A DNA stretch of 64,000 bases from Nitrosopumilus sp. (GTDB lineage Archaea > Thermoproteota > Nitrososphaeria > Nitrososphaerales > Nitrosopumilaceae): assembly GCA_965205675.1 (NCBI GenBank), contig OZ242186.1:1472001-1536000 (forward strand), written 5' to 3'. This document shows positions 6,119 through 44,254 of the stretch, one piece after another. Position 1 is the first letter of the stretch, and each line of letters begins with the position of its first letter. Made by a program: the position numbers and the translations under genes. The notes beneath the pieces are model-generated. The model was not told the DNA's origin. It made no database searches and was given only the letters and a program-made list of their open reading frames with translations.

Positions 6119-6537
6119 TTGGAATCCTCATATTCTAAATTGATAAAATGAAAATAGTATTTAACTTTTAATCAAAAAATTACAATAATTTTTAATTGCT
6201 GTTAAATTAATTTTATAATAACTAAAATTTCATAAAATCATCATATAGCGACGATCAAAAGTTCGTAAACATCTTTACAGTATTTCTAAAGATACAATTT
6301 GCAACATCAATCTTGAATCTTGTCATTCTAAAATATTTTGACACTGTATCATTTATCGTAAACATTGTATAATATTCTGAAACCTGCAACGCATACTTGC
6401 TTATCTTCCAGCATTGTTCTATCATGTTCTTCAAGTACGGCGATCCTTTTGGCAACCATATTAGTTTGACATCTCTATTGTTTGCAAGATATTCTTTTAC
6501 TTTTTTTGATTTGTGAACTGATGCTCAGTATAGCATG

Positions 6538-6632
6538 ATTGCAATCTTGCCATATTTCCAGTGCGACCTTGGAGCATGAAGTAGCTCACGCCAACTTTGA
6601 CAATTGCAATCTTGCCATATTTCCAGTGCGAC
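6538..6632. repeat. Repeat-spacer-repeat unit 2 (30-bp duplication, 35-bp insert)
   Basis: ATTGCAATCTTGCCATATTTCCAGTGCGAC at 6538-6567 and 6603-6632. Confidence 0.93.
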
Positions 6633-6940
6633 TCCTTTAGATATTCTACAAATCTTCCAGCATTGAATCTGTCATAAATTTTAAACAGCTGATTGTTATT
6701 TTCCATAATTGTTCCATACTGCCAAACTTTCATGATTGCCTAGGTATGAAAGAAATATTCTCTTGGCAACTGGTGACTGGGTATTTTTTCCTGTCTTTGT
6801 ATCCCTTAGAAAAAATGCCTCATCAGCCATTGCAATGACAAATCCTTCTTTTTTAGGCGTAAAATTCTCTTTCTGATGCGTTGCTGCCAGCTTTTCACAG
6901 CAGATACGCTTGCATGGTGGATGTGATATTTTTGTGCAGT

Positions 6941-7080
6941 AGATGTCTTGCGTAATTATTTCTAGGCGTGAATTTTGCTGCAGGATTTTTCAAATTGGTT
7001 GAGAAATTTGAATTTTCAGGTATGAATTCTGTTAAAATACAAAATTTGAGAAAAAATCTCTATAATTACGCAAGAGGTCT
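6941..7080. mobile_element. 140-bp MITE, copy 1
   Basis: IRs AGATGTCTTGCGTAATTA / TAATTACGCAAGAGGTCT; 3-bp TSD AGT; near-identical to 43278-43417. Confidence 0.9.
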
Positions 7081-7352
7081 AGTTTTTGCAGATATCCTAC
7101 TGGTGCATTATCTTTCTGATGTGAGTAATGTGAAATTTCACTCCAGTGGAATAAGATATTGCTTGCTGTAGCATCACAGGCGTAAACAAAGTTAGCATTG
7201 CCTTTGAGATGATACAGTCCGTTTTCTTCTTTGAAATTGTTCTTGGTCTTCCACTCCTTGGATGGTCGTAGAGGCCATCGATTTCAAAACAATTCACTCA
7301 TTTTCGTACCCAGATTGTGCAGTGTCTTTGCAGTGTGTTCTATTTCCTTACC

Positions 7353-7462
7353 ATCTTTTAGAATCATCAATACTGCCAAGCATTCTTACCTCTAGTCAGA
7401 ATTTCTTGATGTCGTTGGATTAATTATCTTTTAGAATCATCAATACTGCCAAGCATTCTTAC
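7353..7462. repeat. Repeat-spacer-repeat unit 3 (37-bp duplication, 36-bp insert)
   Basis: ATCTTTTAGAATCATCAATACTGCCAAGCATTCTTAC at 7353-7389 and 7426-7462. Confidence 0.95.
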
Positions 7463-7650
7463 TGCAACTTTTGAATTTTTTGTAATGCTGCTTTCAAGGG
7501 ATTCTAACTTCCATGTATTTTGTTGGGTTGACTGATCAAAAGGTTTTTTGTTTTGGAATTATTTAGTTCACGAACTTTGTCTTTTCGCTATACAATACTA
7601 TTGATTTGACATGAGGATCATTCTAATACATCATTTCTCAAAGAATCCTG

Positions 7651-8460
7651 ATGAGAAATCCGACTGCAATAATCGGACTGCTGGTTTTGAGCGTAGCATT
7701 GCTTACTATGACAATATACGCAATTGACACTCAGATAATTACTATCGGAGATAAATCATCTGCTGTTCCCATAAAGACCACGTTAATCAATGATTCATTT
7801 AGCACCACACTTGATTCTTGGACATTTCAAGAAAATCCCAACACTGTAGCAAATCAGAGATATTGTAACACGCAAAATACTAATGTATACAGTCTGACTC
7901 ATAATTCAAATCATGATGGTTCTGCACTAATTGATAATTCAAATCATGATGGTTCTGCACTAATTGATAATTCAAATACCTGTTGGTTTGGTACAGTAGG
8001 CGGTGTAAAGTCATTTACAGTTCCAACAGTTCATGATGGCAGCACATTGGAAATGACTCTTGATTATCGAAGTGTTGCCGGTTTAATACCCACAACTGAT
8101 GCGCCTAGTGCCATTTTTACATTGGAAAGGACTCTTGATTATCGAAGTGATGCTGGAGCAATTTCTGCAGGAGTTGGCCATGTAAATAACATGTCTGTCT
8201 TGATTACTGATTCTGATGGTAATATCCTAAAAGAAGAAATATTGTATTCTGGTGCACGCAGCTCGGACTTGAGGGATACTGGCTGGCAAGAAAAGACAAT
8301 TATCGTAAACTCGATAAACGCTACAAAATGCCCATGTGATGTATTTATTTATACTGCGGATTCCTGGCTTGCAGAATGGCAAAAAAAGATTTACTTTGAC
8401 AATGTCAATGTAACACTATCTCATCCAATATCTGATATTGATTACATTTCCTTTCCGTGA
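7651..8460 (+). CDS. Secreted beta-rich protein with internal duplications; C-terminus probably replaced by IS5 sequence
   Basis: Signal peptide; 33-bp tandem duplication at 7901-7977 (NSNHDGSALID x2); 75-bp in-frame insertion at 8044-8156; last codons overlap an antisense IS5 remnant. Confidence 0.7.
   Translation: MRNPTAIIGLLVLSVALLTMTIYAIDTQIITIGDKSSAVPIKTTLINDSFSTTLDSWTFQENPNTVANQRYCNTQNTNVYSLTHNSNHDGSALIDNSNHDGSALIDNSNTCWFGTVGGVKSFTVPTVHDGSTLEMTLDYRSVAGLIPTTDAPSAIFTLERTLDYRSDAGAISAGVGHVNNMSVLITDSDGNILKEEILYSGARSSDLRDTGWQEKTIIVNSINATKCPCDVFIYTADSWLAEWQKKIYFDNVNVTLSHPISDIDYISFP
8044..8156. repeat. Repeat-spacer-repeat unit 4 (~38-bp duplication with 3 mismatches, ~37-bp insert, in frame)
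   Basis: ACATTGGAAATGACTCTTGATTATCGAAGTGTTGCCGG (8044-8081) vs ACATTGGAAAGGACTCTTGATTATCGAAGTGATGCTGG (8119-8156). Confidence 0.85.
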
Positions 8461-9531: not shown

Positions 9532-10401
9532 ATGGTTTCAGTAGTCAAAAGAAAAAAGGGAAATGAGTATTATTATTTGATTTATCATTCAGGCAAAACT
9601 TTGCATGAAAGATATCTCGGTAAACAGATCCCAAAAAACATTGATTCAATCAAACTAGAATTTGAAGAAAAAATGTTTACAAAAGAGAACATTCCATTAT
9701 TGGAGAAAATACGTGATAATCATTCAAAACATATCATCAAAGCAGATCAGAAAATAATACAATCAGAAAATCATGAATTCAAAATATATCATATCTACAG
9801 CACCCAGAGAATAGAAGGCAGTACTATGACATATGGTCAGACAAAAAAACTATTGGAATACAACTTGTCTCCTAAAGACACGGCAACAGAACATATCATA
9901 GAAGCTAAACAAATGGAAGAAATATTTGATGATTTACTTGTGACAAAATCAGACATTTCCAAAAAATTAATCCTTCATTGGCATGAAAAACTATTTGAAA
10001 AAACAGACATAAACAATTCGGGGAGTTTTAGACGAGAAGATGTTGCACCATCTGGAGGAAAAACGGAATATGTGTTATGGGCAGATGTAATTGCTGATAT
10101 GGAAGAACTCGTAAAATGGTATGACAAAAATAAAAAATCAATGAATTCTGTAATACTATCTGCGTTATTCCATAGAAAATTTGAGTTGATACATCCATTC
10201 ATAGATGGAAATGGACGAATTGGCAGATTGTTAATGTTGCTAATCTTACACAAAAATAGATATCCTTTAATGAATATTTTGCCAAAAGAAAAACTCACCT
10301 ATATCAATAAACTTGAATCATCATATCTGAAAGATAGTAGCTTGATTTTTCTAAAATGGGTTATGGCAAAGTATCTCAGAGATAATAAAAAATATCTCTG
10401 A
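9532..10401 (+). CDS. Fic-family protein
   Basis: Canonical HPFIDGNGRIGR motif and an STQRIEG helix. Confidence 0.92.
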   Translation: MVSVVKRKKGNEYYYLIYHSGKTLHERYLGKQIPKNIDSIKLEFEEKMFTKENIPLLEKIRDNHSKHIIKADQKIIQSENHEFKIYHIYSTQRIEGSTMTYGQTKKLLEYNLSPKDTATEHIIEAKQMEEIFDDLLVTKSDISKKLILHWHEKLFEKTDINNSGSFRREDVAPSGGKTEYVLWADVIADMEELVKWYDKNKKSMNSVILSALFHRKFELIHPFIDGNGRIGRLLMLLILHKNRYPLMNILPKEKLTYINKLESSYLKDSSLIFLKWVMAKYLRDNKKYL

Positions 10402-10572
10402 TTTTTTTGTATGTATAGCGAAAAGATAAAGTTCGTGAACTAAATTTCAAAAAACTAGAAATCAATTGAACTTATACCTCGGAGCATAATTCTTTGCAAT
10501 TTTTCAAAACAAATAGCAATACTTTTTGATCAGTAGTTAGAAATAATTTCATGGACATCACAAATGACGAGT

Positions 10573-11666
10573 TATACCTCGGAGCATAATTCTTTGCAAT
10601 TTTTCAAAACAAATAGCAATACTTTTTGATCAGTAGTTAGAAATAATTTCATGGACATCACAAATGACGAGTTACTCCAGGCCTACAAAAAAGAAAAGTA
10701 CGGTAAGAAAAAGGAAAGACTGCATGCAATGTGTATAATTAAGATCAACAAATCTACAATTGCTGAAACTGCAAGCCAAATGTTTTGTACATACAATTCT
10801 GTAAGGAACTGCCTTGATTCATTTGAAAAATATGGATTGGGGGGTCTGGAGGACCTCCCTCGTTCTGGCCGTCCGCCATTAATTTCACACAAAAAATTAC
10901 AAAAAATAGAGCGTACATTTAAGAGAATTTCAGATGGAATGACTCCAAAAAAACTGATACAATTCATATTTTACAGAACACGCATTACATATCATATCAC
11001 TCATGTGCGTCGTTTGATGTACAAATGGAATCTAAAACCAAAGGTTCCACAAAAGGTACATGTGCGAGCAGCATCCAAGGATGTGTGCCGCAAGTGGAAA
11101 AACCGCATCATTTCACGCATAGAAAAGGCAAAAAAGAAAGGTTTTACAGTATTTATCCAAGACGAGTCTGTATTTGTAGACGATGTACGTCTTGGCAAAA
11201 AATACTGGACAGATGCACACCAACGAATGATTGTACGTTGGAGAGGATCACATCAAAGATTTTTGGTTTATGGAAATGATGATAATCAAAGTTTTTTTAG
11301 ATCGTATGAAAAATTTAATTCAATTGCATTTATAGATTATTTGGAGGCAGCTCGTAGAAAATTTGGAAAAATATTTGTTATCGTCGATAGAGCACCACAA
11401 CACAAAGCTAATGATGTAAAAAAATATCTGCACAAAAACAAAGATGTCAAACTGGCATATCTTCTGAGAGGCTCCCCGCATTTGAGTATGATTGAAGAGA
11501 TTTGGAGACAGTGCAAACATGTTAATGTTGAATCAGATTTTTATGAATCTATTCATGAGATGAGGCATACAGTTATGGAATATTTTAGAACCCATAAATT
11601 TGATTTGAATATGTATCAGTATTTTGCAAGAACAGTGAATTGAAAAGACTTATGATCTGGGGTATA
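10573..11666 (+). mobile_element. IS630-family element (transposase 10651-11643)
   Basis: IRs TATACCTCGGAGCATAA / TTATGATCTGGGGTATA; QDES...DRAPQH...IEEIW triad. An extra 100-bp left end precedes it at 10473-10572. Confidence 0.9.
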
Positions 11667-14622: not shown

Positions 14623-15033
14623 GAATTTTAAATGCAAGTTCTAGATTTCTCATTGGGCAGTTGTCTATTTTGACTTCAATTGACATATTTTGGATGTCCT
14701 TGATAGTTTGCATGACACATTGATATTTAGATAATTCTACTATCAATCTATCTGCTATAATTTCATCTATGGTATTTTTTCGAATCTCATTGGTTAAATG
14801 AAAACAACAGATTAACATTAATTGATCCCAATCACATTTGAGATTTTGATGAATTGTCTCTGTAATAATTCCATATATTATGTGGAGATTTTTTTCATTA
14901 TTTTTATAAAATTGAATTTTCTTTGTCTTTGTGTTATGATAGCTTTGAATATGAAATTTAATCTGAATCATTTCATAATATCAAATAAAATAGAACATAG
15001 CATTTTATCTTGTAAAATGATTTAAAAGGAAAT

Positions 15034-15966
15034 TCAGTTTTTTCTTATTTTGGAAAATTCTATTCCGAGAATTTTTTTCCTGCTGATATCAAGTATTTTG
15101 TAAATCACGTTAATGATATTCTCTGTTTTATTTCCCAAAATTCTAATTATTATTCCTGATTCATCAGGAAGAATAGACATTCCAACAGACATTTTATCTA
15201 AAATCTTGAGATATTCATAAAGATTATTTTCTAATTCATTTATGGTTTTTTTCCTAGTTAAAATATAAACTGTTCCAACTATTTCATATTCGCCTAATAT
15301 TCCAAAATCATTTAATTTCTTGTCTTTTGGCTTAATCTTTGTATTCTCCAAAAATCTGATTTTTTTGTCTTGATCTGAGCAATGTGTTCTAAGATAGCAA
15401 ATATCGTATTCAAAAGATTCACCTGATGCAACTCTGCCTGGAGTTAAGATTTCTGAATAAATCAATGTAGAGTTGTTATGAACATTGAGATTTGCTTTTT
15501 GATAGTATCTAGAGTTTTTGTAGGGGATGATCTGGTCAGGAATATATTCAAAATAACAATTCTCTTCAATTGTAATATTGAGAATGTGTGATGCCCAATT
15601 AGAATTCATTCCATAAATTCTGGTGGCTCCCTGCGTTGTCATATGCGCAACTGCTGTATTTTTTAATACAACATTTGTTTTGTATCTGTCACCTTGCAAA
15701 ATTCCCCCTGATGGTGAAATTACATAAAGATATGCCATGTTGGGATTTGAGATTTCAGGATAAAGAGCTCGCTGAATTAATAATGGAACTTGAGAAAATT
15801 GTTTTGTAATTACTGTTTTTTTCTCATTATTTGTACCAAGTTCCAAATCCAGAATTCCTATTTTGCCTGATTTTCCAACGCCTAATTGATCTACTTTAGT
15901 ATCATGTGCTTGAATTTCTTTTGGAATATCGCCTGGAATAAAATTTTTCAATTTATTGTTTATCAT
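15034..15966 (-). CDS. ureD: Urease accessory protein UreD
   Basis: SPSGGILQGD, TTQGATRIY, EILTPGRVASGE motifs; urease cluster context. Confidence 0.93.
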   Translation of the reverse strand: MINNKLKNFIPGDIPKEIQAHDTKVDQLGVGKSGKIGILDLELGTNNEKKTVITKQFSQVPLLIQRALYPEISNPNMAYLYVISPSGGILQGDRYKTNVVLKNTAVAHMTTQGATRIYGMNSNWASHILNITIEENCYFEYIPDQIIPYKNSRYYQKANLNVHNNSTLIYSEILTPGRVASGESFEYDICYLRTHCSDQDKKIRFLENTKIKPKDKKLNDFGILGEYEIVGTVYILTRKKTINELENNLYEYLKILDKMSVGMSILPDESGIIIRILGNKTENIINVIYKILDISRKKILGIEFSKIRKN

Positions 15967-16613
15967 CTCTCTGTAATTGATTTTGGTGGTCTGTCTAATA
16001 ATAAATCACGAATAATGTGTCTAGTTACTTTCATAACTCCCTCATCAGTTTTACAATTAATAAATTCGAATGGTTTTTCTTCTCTAATCTTTTTTGCGTC
16101 TTTTCTCATAATTTCAAGATTTGCACCAACCATATCTGATAAATCAATCTTGTTAATTATCAAAAGATCACAATTCTCAATTCCTAATCCTCCTTTGCGT
16201 GGATATTTATCGCCACCAGCTACATCAATTAGGTAAATAAAATAATCAGCCAAAAGGGGACTAAATGTAGTTGTAATGTTATCCCCACCGCTTTCAATAA
16301 TTATTAGATCAAGATGAGGATATTTTGATTCTATTTCCTCTATTACAGAAAGATTCATCGAGGGGTCTTCTCTTATTGCAGTATGTGGACATCCGCCAGT
16401 TGCCAGACCAATTACCAGATTTTCATCCAGTAATCCTCTTTTGGTGGCTAAATTAGCTCTTATTCTATCTGCATCCTCTTTTGAAATTACATCATTTGAG
16501 ATTATGCTTACACTATATCCAATATCTGCAAGCATTGGAACTATTCTTTCAATAAGCATGGTTTTTCCTGAACCGACTGGTCCCCCTATTCCAATTCTAG
16601 GAATGTGAGACAT
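15963..16613 (-). CDS. ureG: Urease accessory GTPase UreG
   Basis: GGPVGSGKT, GGCPHTAIRED, ESGGDN, NKID motifs. Confidence 0.96.
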   Translation of the reverse strand: MSHIPRIGIGGPVGSGKTMLIERIVPMLADIGYSVSIISNDVISKEDADRIRANLATKRGLLDENLVIGLATGGCPHTAIREDPSMNLSVIEEIESKYPHLDLIIIESGGDNITTTFSPLLADYFIYLIDVAGGDKYPRKGGLGIENCDLLIINKIDLSDMVGANLEIMRKDAKKIREEKPFEFINCKTDEGVMKVTRHIIRDLLLDRPPKSITER

Positions 16614-32594: not shown

Positions 32595-33527
32595 ATGTTT
32601 GCAGTGTGGTTTAGGGTAATTCGCATACGTTTTCTATTAGCATCTGTTATTGCTGTATCCGTAGGACTGTCTCTGAATTGGTGGCAGCACTCTTCAATAG
32701 ATTTGATGGATGCACTTCTTACTTTTGGAGGTGTTATGGCACTTCATACTAGTGTTGATTTATTAAATGATTTTTGGGATTTTAAACGCGGTATTGACAC
32801 TGCAACAAAAAGAACAAAAATGAGTGGCGGTACTGGCGTACTGCCTGAAGGCTTGCTTACACCCTCTTCTGTTTATCGTGCTGGTATTGCATTTTTAATA
32901 ATTGGATCTATGATTGGCAGTTACTTTGTTATTACTGATGGCATCACCATTGCCATAATTCTCGGGTTTGCAATCTTATCTATTTATTTTTACTCTACTA
33001 AAATCATTGACTCTGGTTTGGGGGAATTTTTTGTGGCTGTAAAAGGTGCAATGATTGTCATTGGAACTTTTTTTATTCAATCTGGGCAAATTTCTGTAGA
33101 ATCTATCCTTGCCGGAATTTCTGTAGGATCTCTTTCTGCACTAGTATTGTTTATTGCATCTTTTCCTGATCATGATGCAGACAAGTCCAAAGGCAGAAAA
33201 ACTTTGGTGATTGTAGTAGGAAAACAAAAAGCTGCGAAGTTATTTTGGGTTTTTCCTTTAGTTTCTTATTTGGCAATAATCATTGGTGTTGCTACCACCC
33301 TTTTTCCAGTATTTTCTTTGATCAGCTTATTTAGCATCCCACTCATGATAAAATCGGGATTTGGATTACAGAAAAATTACAATTTTGTAAACGATCTTGT
33401 CCCATACATGTCTACAACTTTGATGTTTAGCAGAGTTACTGGAGCGTTGTTTGTGATTGGATTTTTAATTTCTGTCATGTGTAATCAGTTTTTCGATAGC
33501 TTCTTGTTACTGGAGCGTTGTTTGTGA
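32595..33527 (+). CDS. UbiA/MenA-family prenyltransferase with altered C-terminus
   Basis: NDFWDFKRGID and DHDADKSKGRKTL aspartate motifs; the original end GFLIGM* survives at 33550, after the duplication. Confidence 0.88.
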   Translation: MFAVWFRVIRIRFLLASVIAVSVGLSLNWWQHSSIDLMDALLTFGGVMALHTSVDLLNDFWDFKRGIDTATKRTKMSGGTGVLPEGLLTPSSVYRAGIAFLIIGSMIGSYFVITDGITIAIILGFAILSIYFYSTKIIDSGLGEFFVAVKGAMIVIGTFFIQSGQISVESILAGISVGSLSALVLFIASFPDHDADKSKGRKTLVIVVGKQKAAKLFWVFPLVSYLAIIIGVATTLFPVFSLISLFSIPLMIKSGFGLQKNYNFVNDLVPYMSTTLMFSRVTGALFVIGFLISVMCNQFFDSFLLLERCL

Positions 33528-33541
33528 TTGGATTTTTAATT
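33435..33541. repeat. Repeat-spacer-repeat unit 5 (36-bp duplication, 35-bp insert)
   Basis: GTTACTGGAGCGTTGTTTGTGATTGGATTTTTAATT at 33435-33470 and 33506-33541. Confidence 0.95.
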
Positions 33542-43715: not shown

Positions 43716-44017
43716 TTATGCCCAAGTCTCAGTTAACTGATATGGCACTAGAGATTTTGGGTAATAACGTGCAGCTAAAAGATGTTACAGGAGATGACCC
43801 ACTATGTGCCACAAGTACAATATACACTCAAGGCAGACAGGAACGAAACAGGGGCAAGCTACTTGAGGCTATGACCATACGGGTAAGGCCAGTTTTGTTT
43901 GCAAGTGAGTAAAGTATTAGCTTTCTGAAATCTGTAATGCCCTGGTTAAAATTTGAAATCTTTGTTATCTAATAAAACAACAATCATCTATATAATGGGT
44001 AAATTTGAATAATAGCC

Positions 44018-44254
44018 ATGTCACAAAGTCAAAAATCCATAAATTTGAAGTTCAAATACAAACCATCCAGCAATGGTTTTATCGCACAAGGCATCGAACT
44101 TCCCGCAATACTTGTAGAATCTGAAAATGAGGAACAATTAATGAAAGATCTTGACACAGCGACAGACTGTTTCTTTGATTCGTTCCCAGAAGAAAAACAA
44201 AAATTTGTTCTTGCAGAAAGTGAACAGATAACTAAACTGGAAAAACGCATCTAG
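44018..44254 (+). CDS. HicB-like antitoxin
   Basis: GFIAQGIELPAILVESENEEQLMKDLDTA resembles the HicB partial RNase H fold. Confidence 0.6.
   Translation: MSQSQKSINLKFKYKPSSNGFIAQGIELPAILVESENEEQLMKDLDTATDCFFDSFPEEKQKFVLAESEQITKLEKRI

Follow-up and report, generated by a model that had tools for sequence, protein, structure and literature searches.

A spacer-sized insert between 30-bp duplications in an IS630-family element of Nitrosopumilus sp., a probable off-target product of the resident type I-B CRISPR-Cas system

How did a decayed insertion sequence of a marine archaeal lineage come to hold, in its transposase gene, two identical 30-bp segments separated by an insert of the size of a CRISPR spacer? 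The window in which the locus was found, i.e. the whole stretch of DNA analysed, has a length of 64,000 nucleotides and corresponds to positions 1,472,001-1,536,000 of a single 2,011,361-bp contig, which is the complete 2.01-Mb chromosome of Nitrosopumilus sp. (G000). Positions of features within this stretch are given in window coordinates, and those of features elsewhere in chromosome coordinates.

The unit in the IS630-family element and its empty sites

The sequence ATTGCAATCTTGCCATATTTCCAGTGCGAC of the plus strand is present twice, at 6538-6567 and 6603-6632, with 100% identity between the copies and a start-to-start spacing of 65 nt, which confirms the 30-bp duplication around a 35-bp insert in an IS630 element that a sequence-only reading had described. 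A perfect 30-mer recurring 65 nt apart cannot be chance. On the minus strand, the duplicated 30-mer reads GTCGCACTGGAAATATGGCAAGATTGCAAT and the 35-nt insert at 6568-6602 reads TGTCAAAGTTGGCGTGAGCTACTTCATGCTCCAAG, and both readings had been given exactly. In the orientation of the repeat, which is that of the minus strand, the copy at 6603-6632 is located upstream and reads GTCGCACTGG...GATTGCAAT; it is followed by the insert, an apparently captured fragment of spacer size, and by the second copy at 6538-6567. The insert was also said to be richer in GC, and its GC content is indeed 0.49 compared with 0.337 for the genome.

The unit is hosted by a decayed IS630-family element of 1.35 kb on the minus strand (6244-7592), with terminal inverted repeats at 6244-6270 and 7566-7592. 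The N-terminal fragment of this element matches the IS630 transposase model NF033545 with an E value of 2e-4, and a confirmed IS630 transposase of the genome gives E=2e-71 (39% identity) with the sister copies of the element and E~1e-16 with the window copy. The sister copies are ~1.08 kb long and lack all three insertions of the window copy. Aside from the 6538-6632 unit, these insertions are a 142-bp MITE and a second solitary unit. The MITE (6940-7081) has inverted-repeat arms of 20 nt at 6940-6959 and 7062-7081 and 28 other copies of 94-99% identity scattered over the genome, and the sister IS copies are uninterrupted at the point where it lies. The second unit (7353-7462) belongs to a longer class and is composed of a 37-bp duplication, at 7353-7389 and 7426-7462, around a 36-bp insert; its site is empty in all seven of the other IS copies that cover it.

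Removal of one 30-bp copy together with the 35-bp insert restores the transposase frame, as had been claimed. The restored frame reads ...HWKYGKIAIMLY, an in-frame stop, and ASVHKSKKVKEYL, with the residues ASVHK directly after the stop; the two dots in the earlier translation conceal this TGA. As the stop codon is kept in the reconstructed frame, the unit is not the only reason why the IS copy is dead. The gain of 65 bp is a frameshift, and it constitutes a further inactivating lesion in this copy beside the MITE, the second unit, and the stop codon.

The junction without the insert was rebuilt in silico and aligned to the whole genome. All 20 other copies of the IS family align unbroken across the insert-free junction, nine of them at 84-94% identity and 11 at 72-76%, and only the window copy splits. 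The arrangement is hence not a native feature of the IS; its presence in other copies had been named in the sequence-only reading as a result that would speak against that reading. An unoccupied version of the 6538-6632 site, having a single target copy and no insert, thus exists. Related IS copies were inspected in four other public sequencing runs as well, which represent other organisms (at most 0.19 of the sampled words occur in any one run). In all four, the related copies skip 65 bp, three passing from 6537 to 6603 and one from 6536 to 6602, and none of the contigs of these runs covers 6573-6593.

Two other identities of the unit were considered and rejected. A bona fide CRISPR array is contradicted by the presence of just two copies, by the nature of the "repeat", which is IS coding sequence occurring once in each of the 20 sister copies, and by its match to the real repeat of the genome, which is only 19/30 and falls short of full identity. 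Insertion of an IS or a MITE was rejected as the source of the 35-nt insert, which has no terminal inverted repeat and no second genomic copy. IS630-type elements duplicate the dinucleotide TA, and a duplication of 30 bp is far longer.

The surroundings of the element contain further repeats. In a 269-aa open reading frame without family match, in-frame repeats of 33 nt (7894-7959) and of 75 nt (8044-8156) are 91-92% identical; they are ordinary protein-coding repeats and not integration units. A different IS630-family element, itself intact and encoding a transposase of 332 aa, is present in more than 15 full-length copies that are nearly identical; the genome is therefore heavily loaded with IS elements.

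The resident type I-B system and the repeat-like target

A complete type I-B CRISPR-Cas locus is located ~780 kb from the unit. Its array (698,254-699,002) has 12 repeats of 30 nt, one of them with a single substitution, and spacers of 34-37 nt; the native repeat in the transcribed orientation is GTTTGAATCGAACTATTATAGGATTGAAAT. The sequence-only reading would have been undermined by a lineage without a 30-bp repeat system, and this genome has one. The adaptation module Cas4-Cas1b-Cas2 (699,158-700,895) adjoins the array. Specifically, Cas1b scores 437 bits with TIGR03641 against a cut-off of 304, Cas4 scores 75.9 bits with TIGR00372, and Cas2 scores 33.4 bits with TIGR01573. All three are above the cut-offs and have open frames, and are thus apparently intact. 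Downstream of cas2, the order is IS630-family sequences, cas3, cas5b, cas7, a 562-aa gene, and cas6; the 562-aa gene has no assignment and stands where the large subunit would be expected. When the whole genome was searched with the Pfam Cas1 model, the gene of the type I-B locus was the sole Cas1 retrieved.

Two side observations concern the locus and its repeat. The gap between cas2 and cas3 (700901-702533; 14901-16533 of locus L002) contains a fragment of a window-type IS copy, which is itself interrupted by the IS630-family element with the 332-aa transposase. At 9808-9905, far from the cas locus and adjoining a MITE copy, there is a degenerate mini-array of two type I-B repeats, which are 28/30 and 26/30 identical to the native repeat and enclose a 38-nt spacer.

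The dimensions of the 6538-6632 unit agree with those of the resident system. The duplication has the native repeat length of 30 nt, and the 35-nt insert falls inside the native spacer range of 34-37 nt. Taken together, the type I-B arrays of this genome and of six loci of relatives hold 67 spacers of 34-39 nt with a mode of 36 nt. Nucleotide signatures at the spacer ends gave no usable bias when type I-B spacers were compared with those of the 36-nt-repeat system found in relatives.

The target resembles the native repeat in sequence as well. The minus-strand 30-mer matches it at 19 of 30 positions, in register and with no offset. Random genomic 30-mers (200,000, better strand) score 9.6±2.3, and the probability of reaching at least 19 is 1.8e-4. 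The earlier proposal that resemblance to a CRISPR repeat attracted the integrase is plausible and is supported by this in-register match to the resident repeat. At the corresponding place, six of the sister IS copies reach 20/30, so the IS carries one of the most repeat-like sites of the genome. Yet these six are empty, and ~294 genomic 30-mer positions score at least 19/30 against the native repeat; likeness alone hence does not predict integration. Three more units with 30-nt duplications occur elsewhere in the genome, and their in-register scores are 18/30 at 98273 (P=6e-4), 15/30 at 199961 (P=0.019), and 18/30 at 439378 (P=6e-4). G1, A6, T8, A28, and T30 are common to all four 30-nt units and the native repeat, the ends of the four targets match the ends of the native repeat (P=2e-5), and the targets are alike among themselves, having 80 matches over the six pairs vs 67.6±4.6 in random sets (P=0.013).

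We consider it highly probable that the 6538-6632 unit arose when the resident type I-B system integrated a spacer off target (ectopically), at a look-alike of its repeat. This reading is built on the anatomy of the unit, the empty sites, the in-register likeness, and the agreement of the unit with a resident system in ruler and in spacer length. The resident Cas1-Cas2 would be the catalyst of the event, and the chemistry proposed here is borrowed by analogy from established Cas1-Cas2 work. The resident Cas4-Cas1b-Cas2 module would have carried a prespacer of ~35 nt and inserted it in the repeat-like 30-bp stretch of the IS630 transposase gene, not at the leader-repeat junction of the array. 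Two staggered transesterifications on opposite strands, 30 bp apart, followed by gap filling, would have duplicated the 30-bp target. Duplication of the target on both sides of the spacer would be equivalent to the fate of the first repeat in a real array. The unit is in the sense orientation of the transposase gene and might therefore, in principle and speculatively, be transcribed as a one-spacer proto-array; a Cas6-processed RNA derived from it would bear the 5' handle ATTGCAAT.

Solitary units across the genome and rival explanations

The census of comparable units was taken by collecting perfect non-tandem duplications and then by a mismatch-tolerant scan of the whole genome at spacings of 50-95. 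About 13 solitary units are present, four of a short class and nine of a long class. Across the scanned range, non-tandem duplications are confined to spacings of 62-75 plus one at 81, and the size classes are therefore real. In the short class, the 30-nt duplication encloses an insert of 34 nt at 98273 (with one mismatch between the copies), 37 nt at 199961, 35 nt at 439378, and 35 nt at 1478538, the last being the 6538-6632 unit. The nine units of the long class have apparent duplications of 36-39 nt, inserts of 33-37 nt, and spacings of 70-73; they are located at 541166, 732792 (one mismatch), 1247936 (two mismatches), 1474824, 1479353, 1505435, 1599699, 1704607, and 1774762.

Three long-class units lie inside the window. 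Aside from the one at 7353-7462, these are a unit at 2824-2934 in an IS66-family transposase gene, where an apparent duplication of 38 bp encloses an insert of 35 bp, and a unit at 33435-33541, with a 36-bp duplication and a 35-bp insert, which takes the place of the last two codons in a UbiA-family gene. The UbiA site is empty in 26 of the 26 congeners whose alignments reach it from both sides, which are just 70-80% identical; the alignments overlap by ~35 nt, equivalent to a single target copy. With regard to location, two units reside in the IS630 copy of the window, one in the IS66-family transposase gene, and one in a small transposase-like frame assigned by eye. Three affect the last 3-8 codons of genes, namely the UbiA-family gene, a HemA-like frame assigned by eye, and the gene of a small secreted-looking protein. 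One is an in-frame insertion of 72 bp, one is directly upstream of a PCNA-like frame assigned by eye, and the remaining ones are intergenic or in small frames. Insertion at random sites with subsequent selection would be expected to produce such a placement. An IS-rich stretch of 30.6 kb (1474824-1505470, or 2824-33470 of the window) holds four of the 11 units that are perfect or nearly so, a clustering with a simulation P of 0.004. Nearly all units are perfect, which indicates that the visible ones are young, and close direct repeats of this type would also excise easily. The window contains in addition a perfect 100-bp tandem duplication of 2.0 copies at 10472-10671, which looks non-coding and whose size is unlike that of the CRISPR-type units.

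We searched for the origin of the inserts in several collections. For the 35-nt insert of the 6538-6632 unit, blastn-short against its own genome returned only the insert itself, exact-pattern searches of IMG/VR and of metagenome contigs gave no hit, and no match with three or fewer mismatches was found in 400 related genomes. Queries with the array and with this unit against 50,697 phage records returned matches at chance level (E at least 0.06). The comparison with viral sequence suggested by the sequence-only reading thus yielded no credible source among the phage records or, by exact pattern, in IMG/VR. Inference of a PAM from 345 spacers of relatives' arrays against three genomes produced two weak matches only, too few to use. 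The mean GC content of the unit inserts is 0.39 vs 0.337 for the genome (P=0.02), and that of the array spacers is 0.347.

One unit of the long class has a traceable source. The 32-nt apparent insert of the unit at 1774762 (1774762-1774869) has five more perfect copies between 1337331 and 1344897, where the protospacer sits in a repeated gene with a period of ~1.9 kb (1.337-1.345 Mb). The protospacer is flanked by ..CCCATA on one side and ATTCTGG.. on the other. In these copies the 32-nt sequence continues with AG, which is also how the apparent duplication begins; the spacer proper is therefore 34 nt long and the duplication 36 nt. The unit captured pre-existing genomic DNA, and its spacer is self-derived. 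No self-match in the own genome was found for the other unit inserts or the array spacers.

Three explanations compete with off-target integration by the resident system. The sequence-only reading had taken the 30-bp size as a hint of a second Cas1 system, and a separate system with a 30-bp repeat as the maker of the 6538-6632 unit would be in keeping with that size, taken alone, and with congeners that can hold two type I systems (G287 has both 30-nt and 36-nt arrays). However, the complete chromosome has a single Cas1 gene, which belongs to a type I-B locus with its own 30-nt-repeat array, no remnant of the congeners' second system is detected by tblastn with its cas proteins, and the target resembles the resident 30-nt repeat in register. 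Since the one system present itself has a 30-bp ruler, the suggestion is not supported, and we give this origin next to no weight. The arrival of the IS copy with the unit already in it, after integration by a type I-B system in another cell or in a mobile element, would accord with the description of thaumarchaeal type I-B systems as riding on integrated mobile elements (PMC6563490), as well as with the IS-rich stretch and the clustering of four of the 11 units there. As the resident system is an exact fit, no such import is needed; the chromosomal flank, including the UbiA gene and its neighbours, is syntenic with congeners, and the lack of any difference between the two copies indicates that the event was recent. 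We regard it as very unlikely.

Slippage or break repair, acting independently of Cas proteins, might also have copied the 30 bp and picked up filler DNA. Many genomes contain short duplications with filler, and the window does harbour the 100-bp tandem duplication. Against this stands the restriction of the units to spacings of 62-75, plus one at 81, within the 50-95 scanned, as well as the equality of insert lengths and spacer lengths. The in-register likeness to the repeat extends, moreover, to all four 30-nt targets (the per-unit P values combine to ~1e-12), and repair has no reason to favour repeat-like sites. This course of events is highly improbable, and off-target integration by the resident type I-B system is the reading that we adopt for the 6538-6632 unit.

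Related systems, the long class, and biological meaning

Off-target integration by Cas1-Cas2 into non-CRISPR DNA, resulting in "neo-CRISPR" loci, occurs in vivo in E. coli with the type I-E system (Nivala, Shipman & Church 2018, Nat Microbiol; according to the accounts in PMC7054753, PMC11788318, PMC6698737, and bioRxiv 10.1101/148544). The case described here is best read as a natural instance of this phenomenon, which has been shown experimentally in that species. Both share a spacer-sized insert in non-CRISPR chromosomal DNA and a repeat-length duplication. By these accounts, Cas1-Cas2 was overproduced in the laboratory in E. coli, whereas here ~13 events in two size classes are fixed in the genome of a wild-type archaeon with a type I-B system. 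For P. furiosus Cas1-Cas2 in vitro, off-target sites are reported to share repeat features over a 30-bp region in which G1 and position 30 matter (Nucleic Acids Res 2019, PMC6698737), and the four 30-nt units here all keep G1 and T30. That work is a plasmid assay in vitro and ours a genomic record, and the 36-38-bp class has no counterpart there. The Haloarcula hispanica system is of the same subtype and has a closely similar 30-bp repeat architecture (GTTT..CGAAC..TT..GG.TTGAA). Its duplication is described as starting at a fixed G and ending at a measured distance, with duplications of 29-33 bp only, and adaptation was lost once 4 nt or more had been inserted between the repeat motifs (Wang et al. 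2016, PMC4872114). The range of 29-33 bp fits the 30-nt class here. Ectopic spacer acquisition in Streptococcus thermophilus takes place inside CRISPR arrays, away from the leader-proximal repeat, according to PMC7999890 and PMC5338259; the targets there are genuine array repeats, unlike the ordinary genes and IS elements targeted here. Natural neo-CRISPR cases are mentioned as "circumstantial evidence in two other species" in bioRxiv 10.1101/148544.

Our literature search for natural solitary units in archaea found no description; it returned laboratory studies, ectopic acquisition within arrays, and the one report of "circumstantial" natural cases. Casposase is a homologue of Cas1, and casposons are multi-kb elements that generate target duplications of ~14-15 bp. 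No casposase is present in the genome, whose single Cas1 match is that of the type I-B locus. Casposon integration (cf. PMC6614799) is alike in employing a Cas1-family integrase and in its staggered target duplication.

The occurrence of two ruler classes, one of which has no cognate system, is a more interesting result than the single unit. The targets of the nine long-class units share no consensus (P=0.92). Over their whole length, their likeness to the own 30-nt repeat and to the 36-nt "ATTTCCG..." repeats of the family Nitrosopumilaceae is not significant, and comparison with 36-nt repeats of the same genus gave P values of 0.35-0.96. A likeness to the 37-nt "GTCTGAAAG..." repeats of the family was tried and rejected; two of seven units stand out (21/37, P~0.001; 18-20/36, P of 0.008-0.046), but the result fails correction for multiple comparisons. 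The 5' ends of the long-class targets resemble the 5' octamer of the type I-B repeat (P=0.005) and G283-type ends (P=0.006), both among ten tests. This weak resemblance of the ends would support a Cas1-type integrase as the maker of the long class, whichever that integrase may be.

Some relatives possess a system of matching dimensions. In G013, G239, and G283, all of the same genus, there are large arrays in which 36-nt repeats recur with periods of 70-73; these arrays are part of a second type I system whose gene order is Cas8?-Cas7-Cas5-Cas3-x-Cas1-Cas2-Cas4. Scans for solitary units covered G000, G189, and 0.4 Mb of G013, the relatives being samples of one genome per species; the conclusions draw on no unpublished genome, and the repeats of G206 and G258 entered none of them. 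G013, whose only Cas1 is of the 36-nt type, has two long-class units and no 30-nt unit in the first 400 kb. G189, whose only Cas1 is of type I-B and whose 30-nt array has ~57 repeats, has three long-class units and no 30-nt unit in its whole 1.94-Mb chromosome; two repeats of a 36-nt-type array persist there as a remnant, at a distance of 4.7 kb from its type I-B array. Two observations in these genomes stand on their own. In G189, a 36-nt sequence (CTATTACGGCATCAGC...TTTGCAG) is paired at seven loci of a multi-copy element (17720, 742906, 777244, 1086776, 1221663, 1305769, and 1318830), and each pair encloses an insert of 36-49 nt with a variable poly-G run; the pairs may go back to an old unit propagated together with the element that hosts it, or they may be phase-variable. 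In G013, an orphan mini-array at 43914-44022 (3914-4022 of L145) has two copies of the 37-nt repeat of the family (GTCAAATTGACAAATCC...GGATTGAAAC), and the cas-linked arrays of this genome use a different 36-nt repeat.

Two origins of the long class deserve consideration. An adaptation module with a 36-nt ruler, like that of G013, G239, and G283, recently present on a lost or mobile element that had no cognate array, has, in our estimate, roughly an even chance of being the maker. In favour of this view are the 36-nt arrays of these congeners, the long-class units of G013, and the 36-nt-type remnant in G189. It is compatible with the description of thaumarchaeal CRISPR-Cas systems as riding on integrated mobile elements (PMC6563490). 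The lack of a consensus and of whole-length likeness to the 30-nt repeat among the long-class targets speaks against the resident enzyme, and the Haloarcula ruler of at most 33 bp, together with the loss of adaptation upon insertions of 4 nt or more, argues against the type I-B enzyme for the 36-38-bp class. G000 itself contains no cas gene of a second system detectable by tblastn, no 36-nt-type repeat (best match 26/36), and no second Cas1. The absence of any such trace in a genome whose units are young counts against a second enzyme, as does the missing likeness of the long-class targets to the 36-nt repeats of congeners. The alternative, to which we assign a lower though still appreciable probability, is that the resident type I-B Cas1-Cas2 made the long class in a second mode, so that a single enzyme would have two rulers, a motif-anchored 30-bp mode on repeat-like DNA and a sequence-independent ~36-37-bp mode on ordinary DNA. 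If this were true, the ~36-37-bp mode would be the main route by which the immune system mutates its own chromosome. The single Cas1 of the genome, the likeness of the 5' ends to the type I-B octamer, and the long-class units of G189, whose sole Cas1 is of type I-B, leave room for such a dual ruler. Compared with the dual ruler, the lost or mobile module is the more conservative explanation and about as likely or likelier; the remaining probability falls to other explanations.

CRISPR adaptation is assumed to carry off-target integration as a hidden cost, and such integration has been proposed as a way in which new arrays arise, yet in the literature searched here natural examples are almost absent. 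In the genome analysed here, ~13 solitary units can be counted and compared with empty sites; among them are a clear case of repeat mimicry, which would have guided the integrase, and a self-derived spacer with its protospacer. Units have survived only in IS elements, at the ends of genes, at in-frame positions, and in intergenic DNA. The specificity rules of the type I-B integrase, its ruler, and its mutational burden hence become testable in an ecologically important archaeon. These stray insertions show that an immune system can scar its own genome, and they might seed new arrays.
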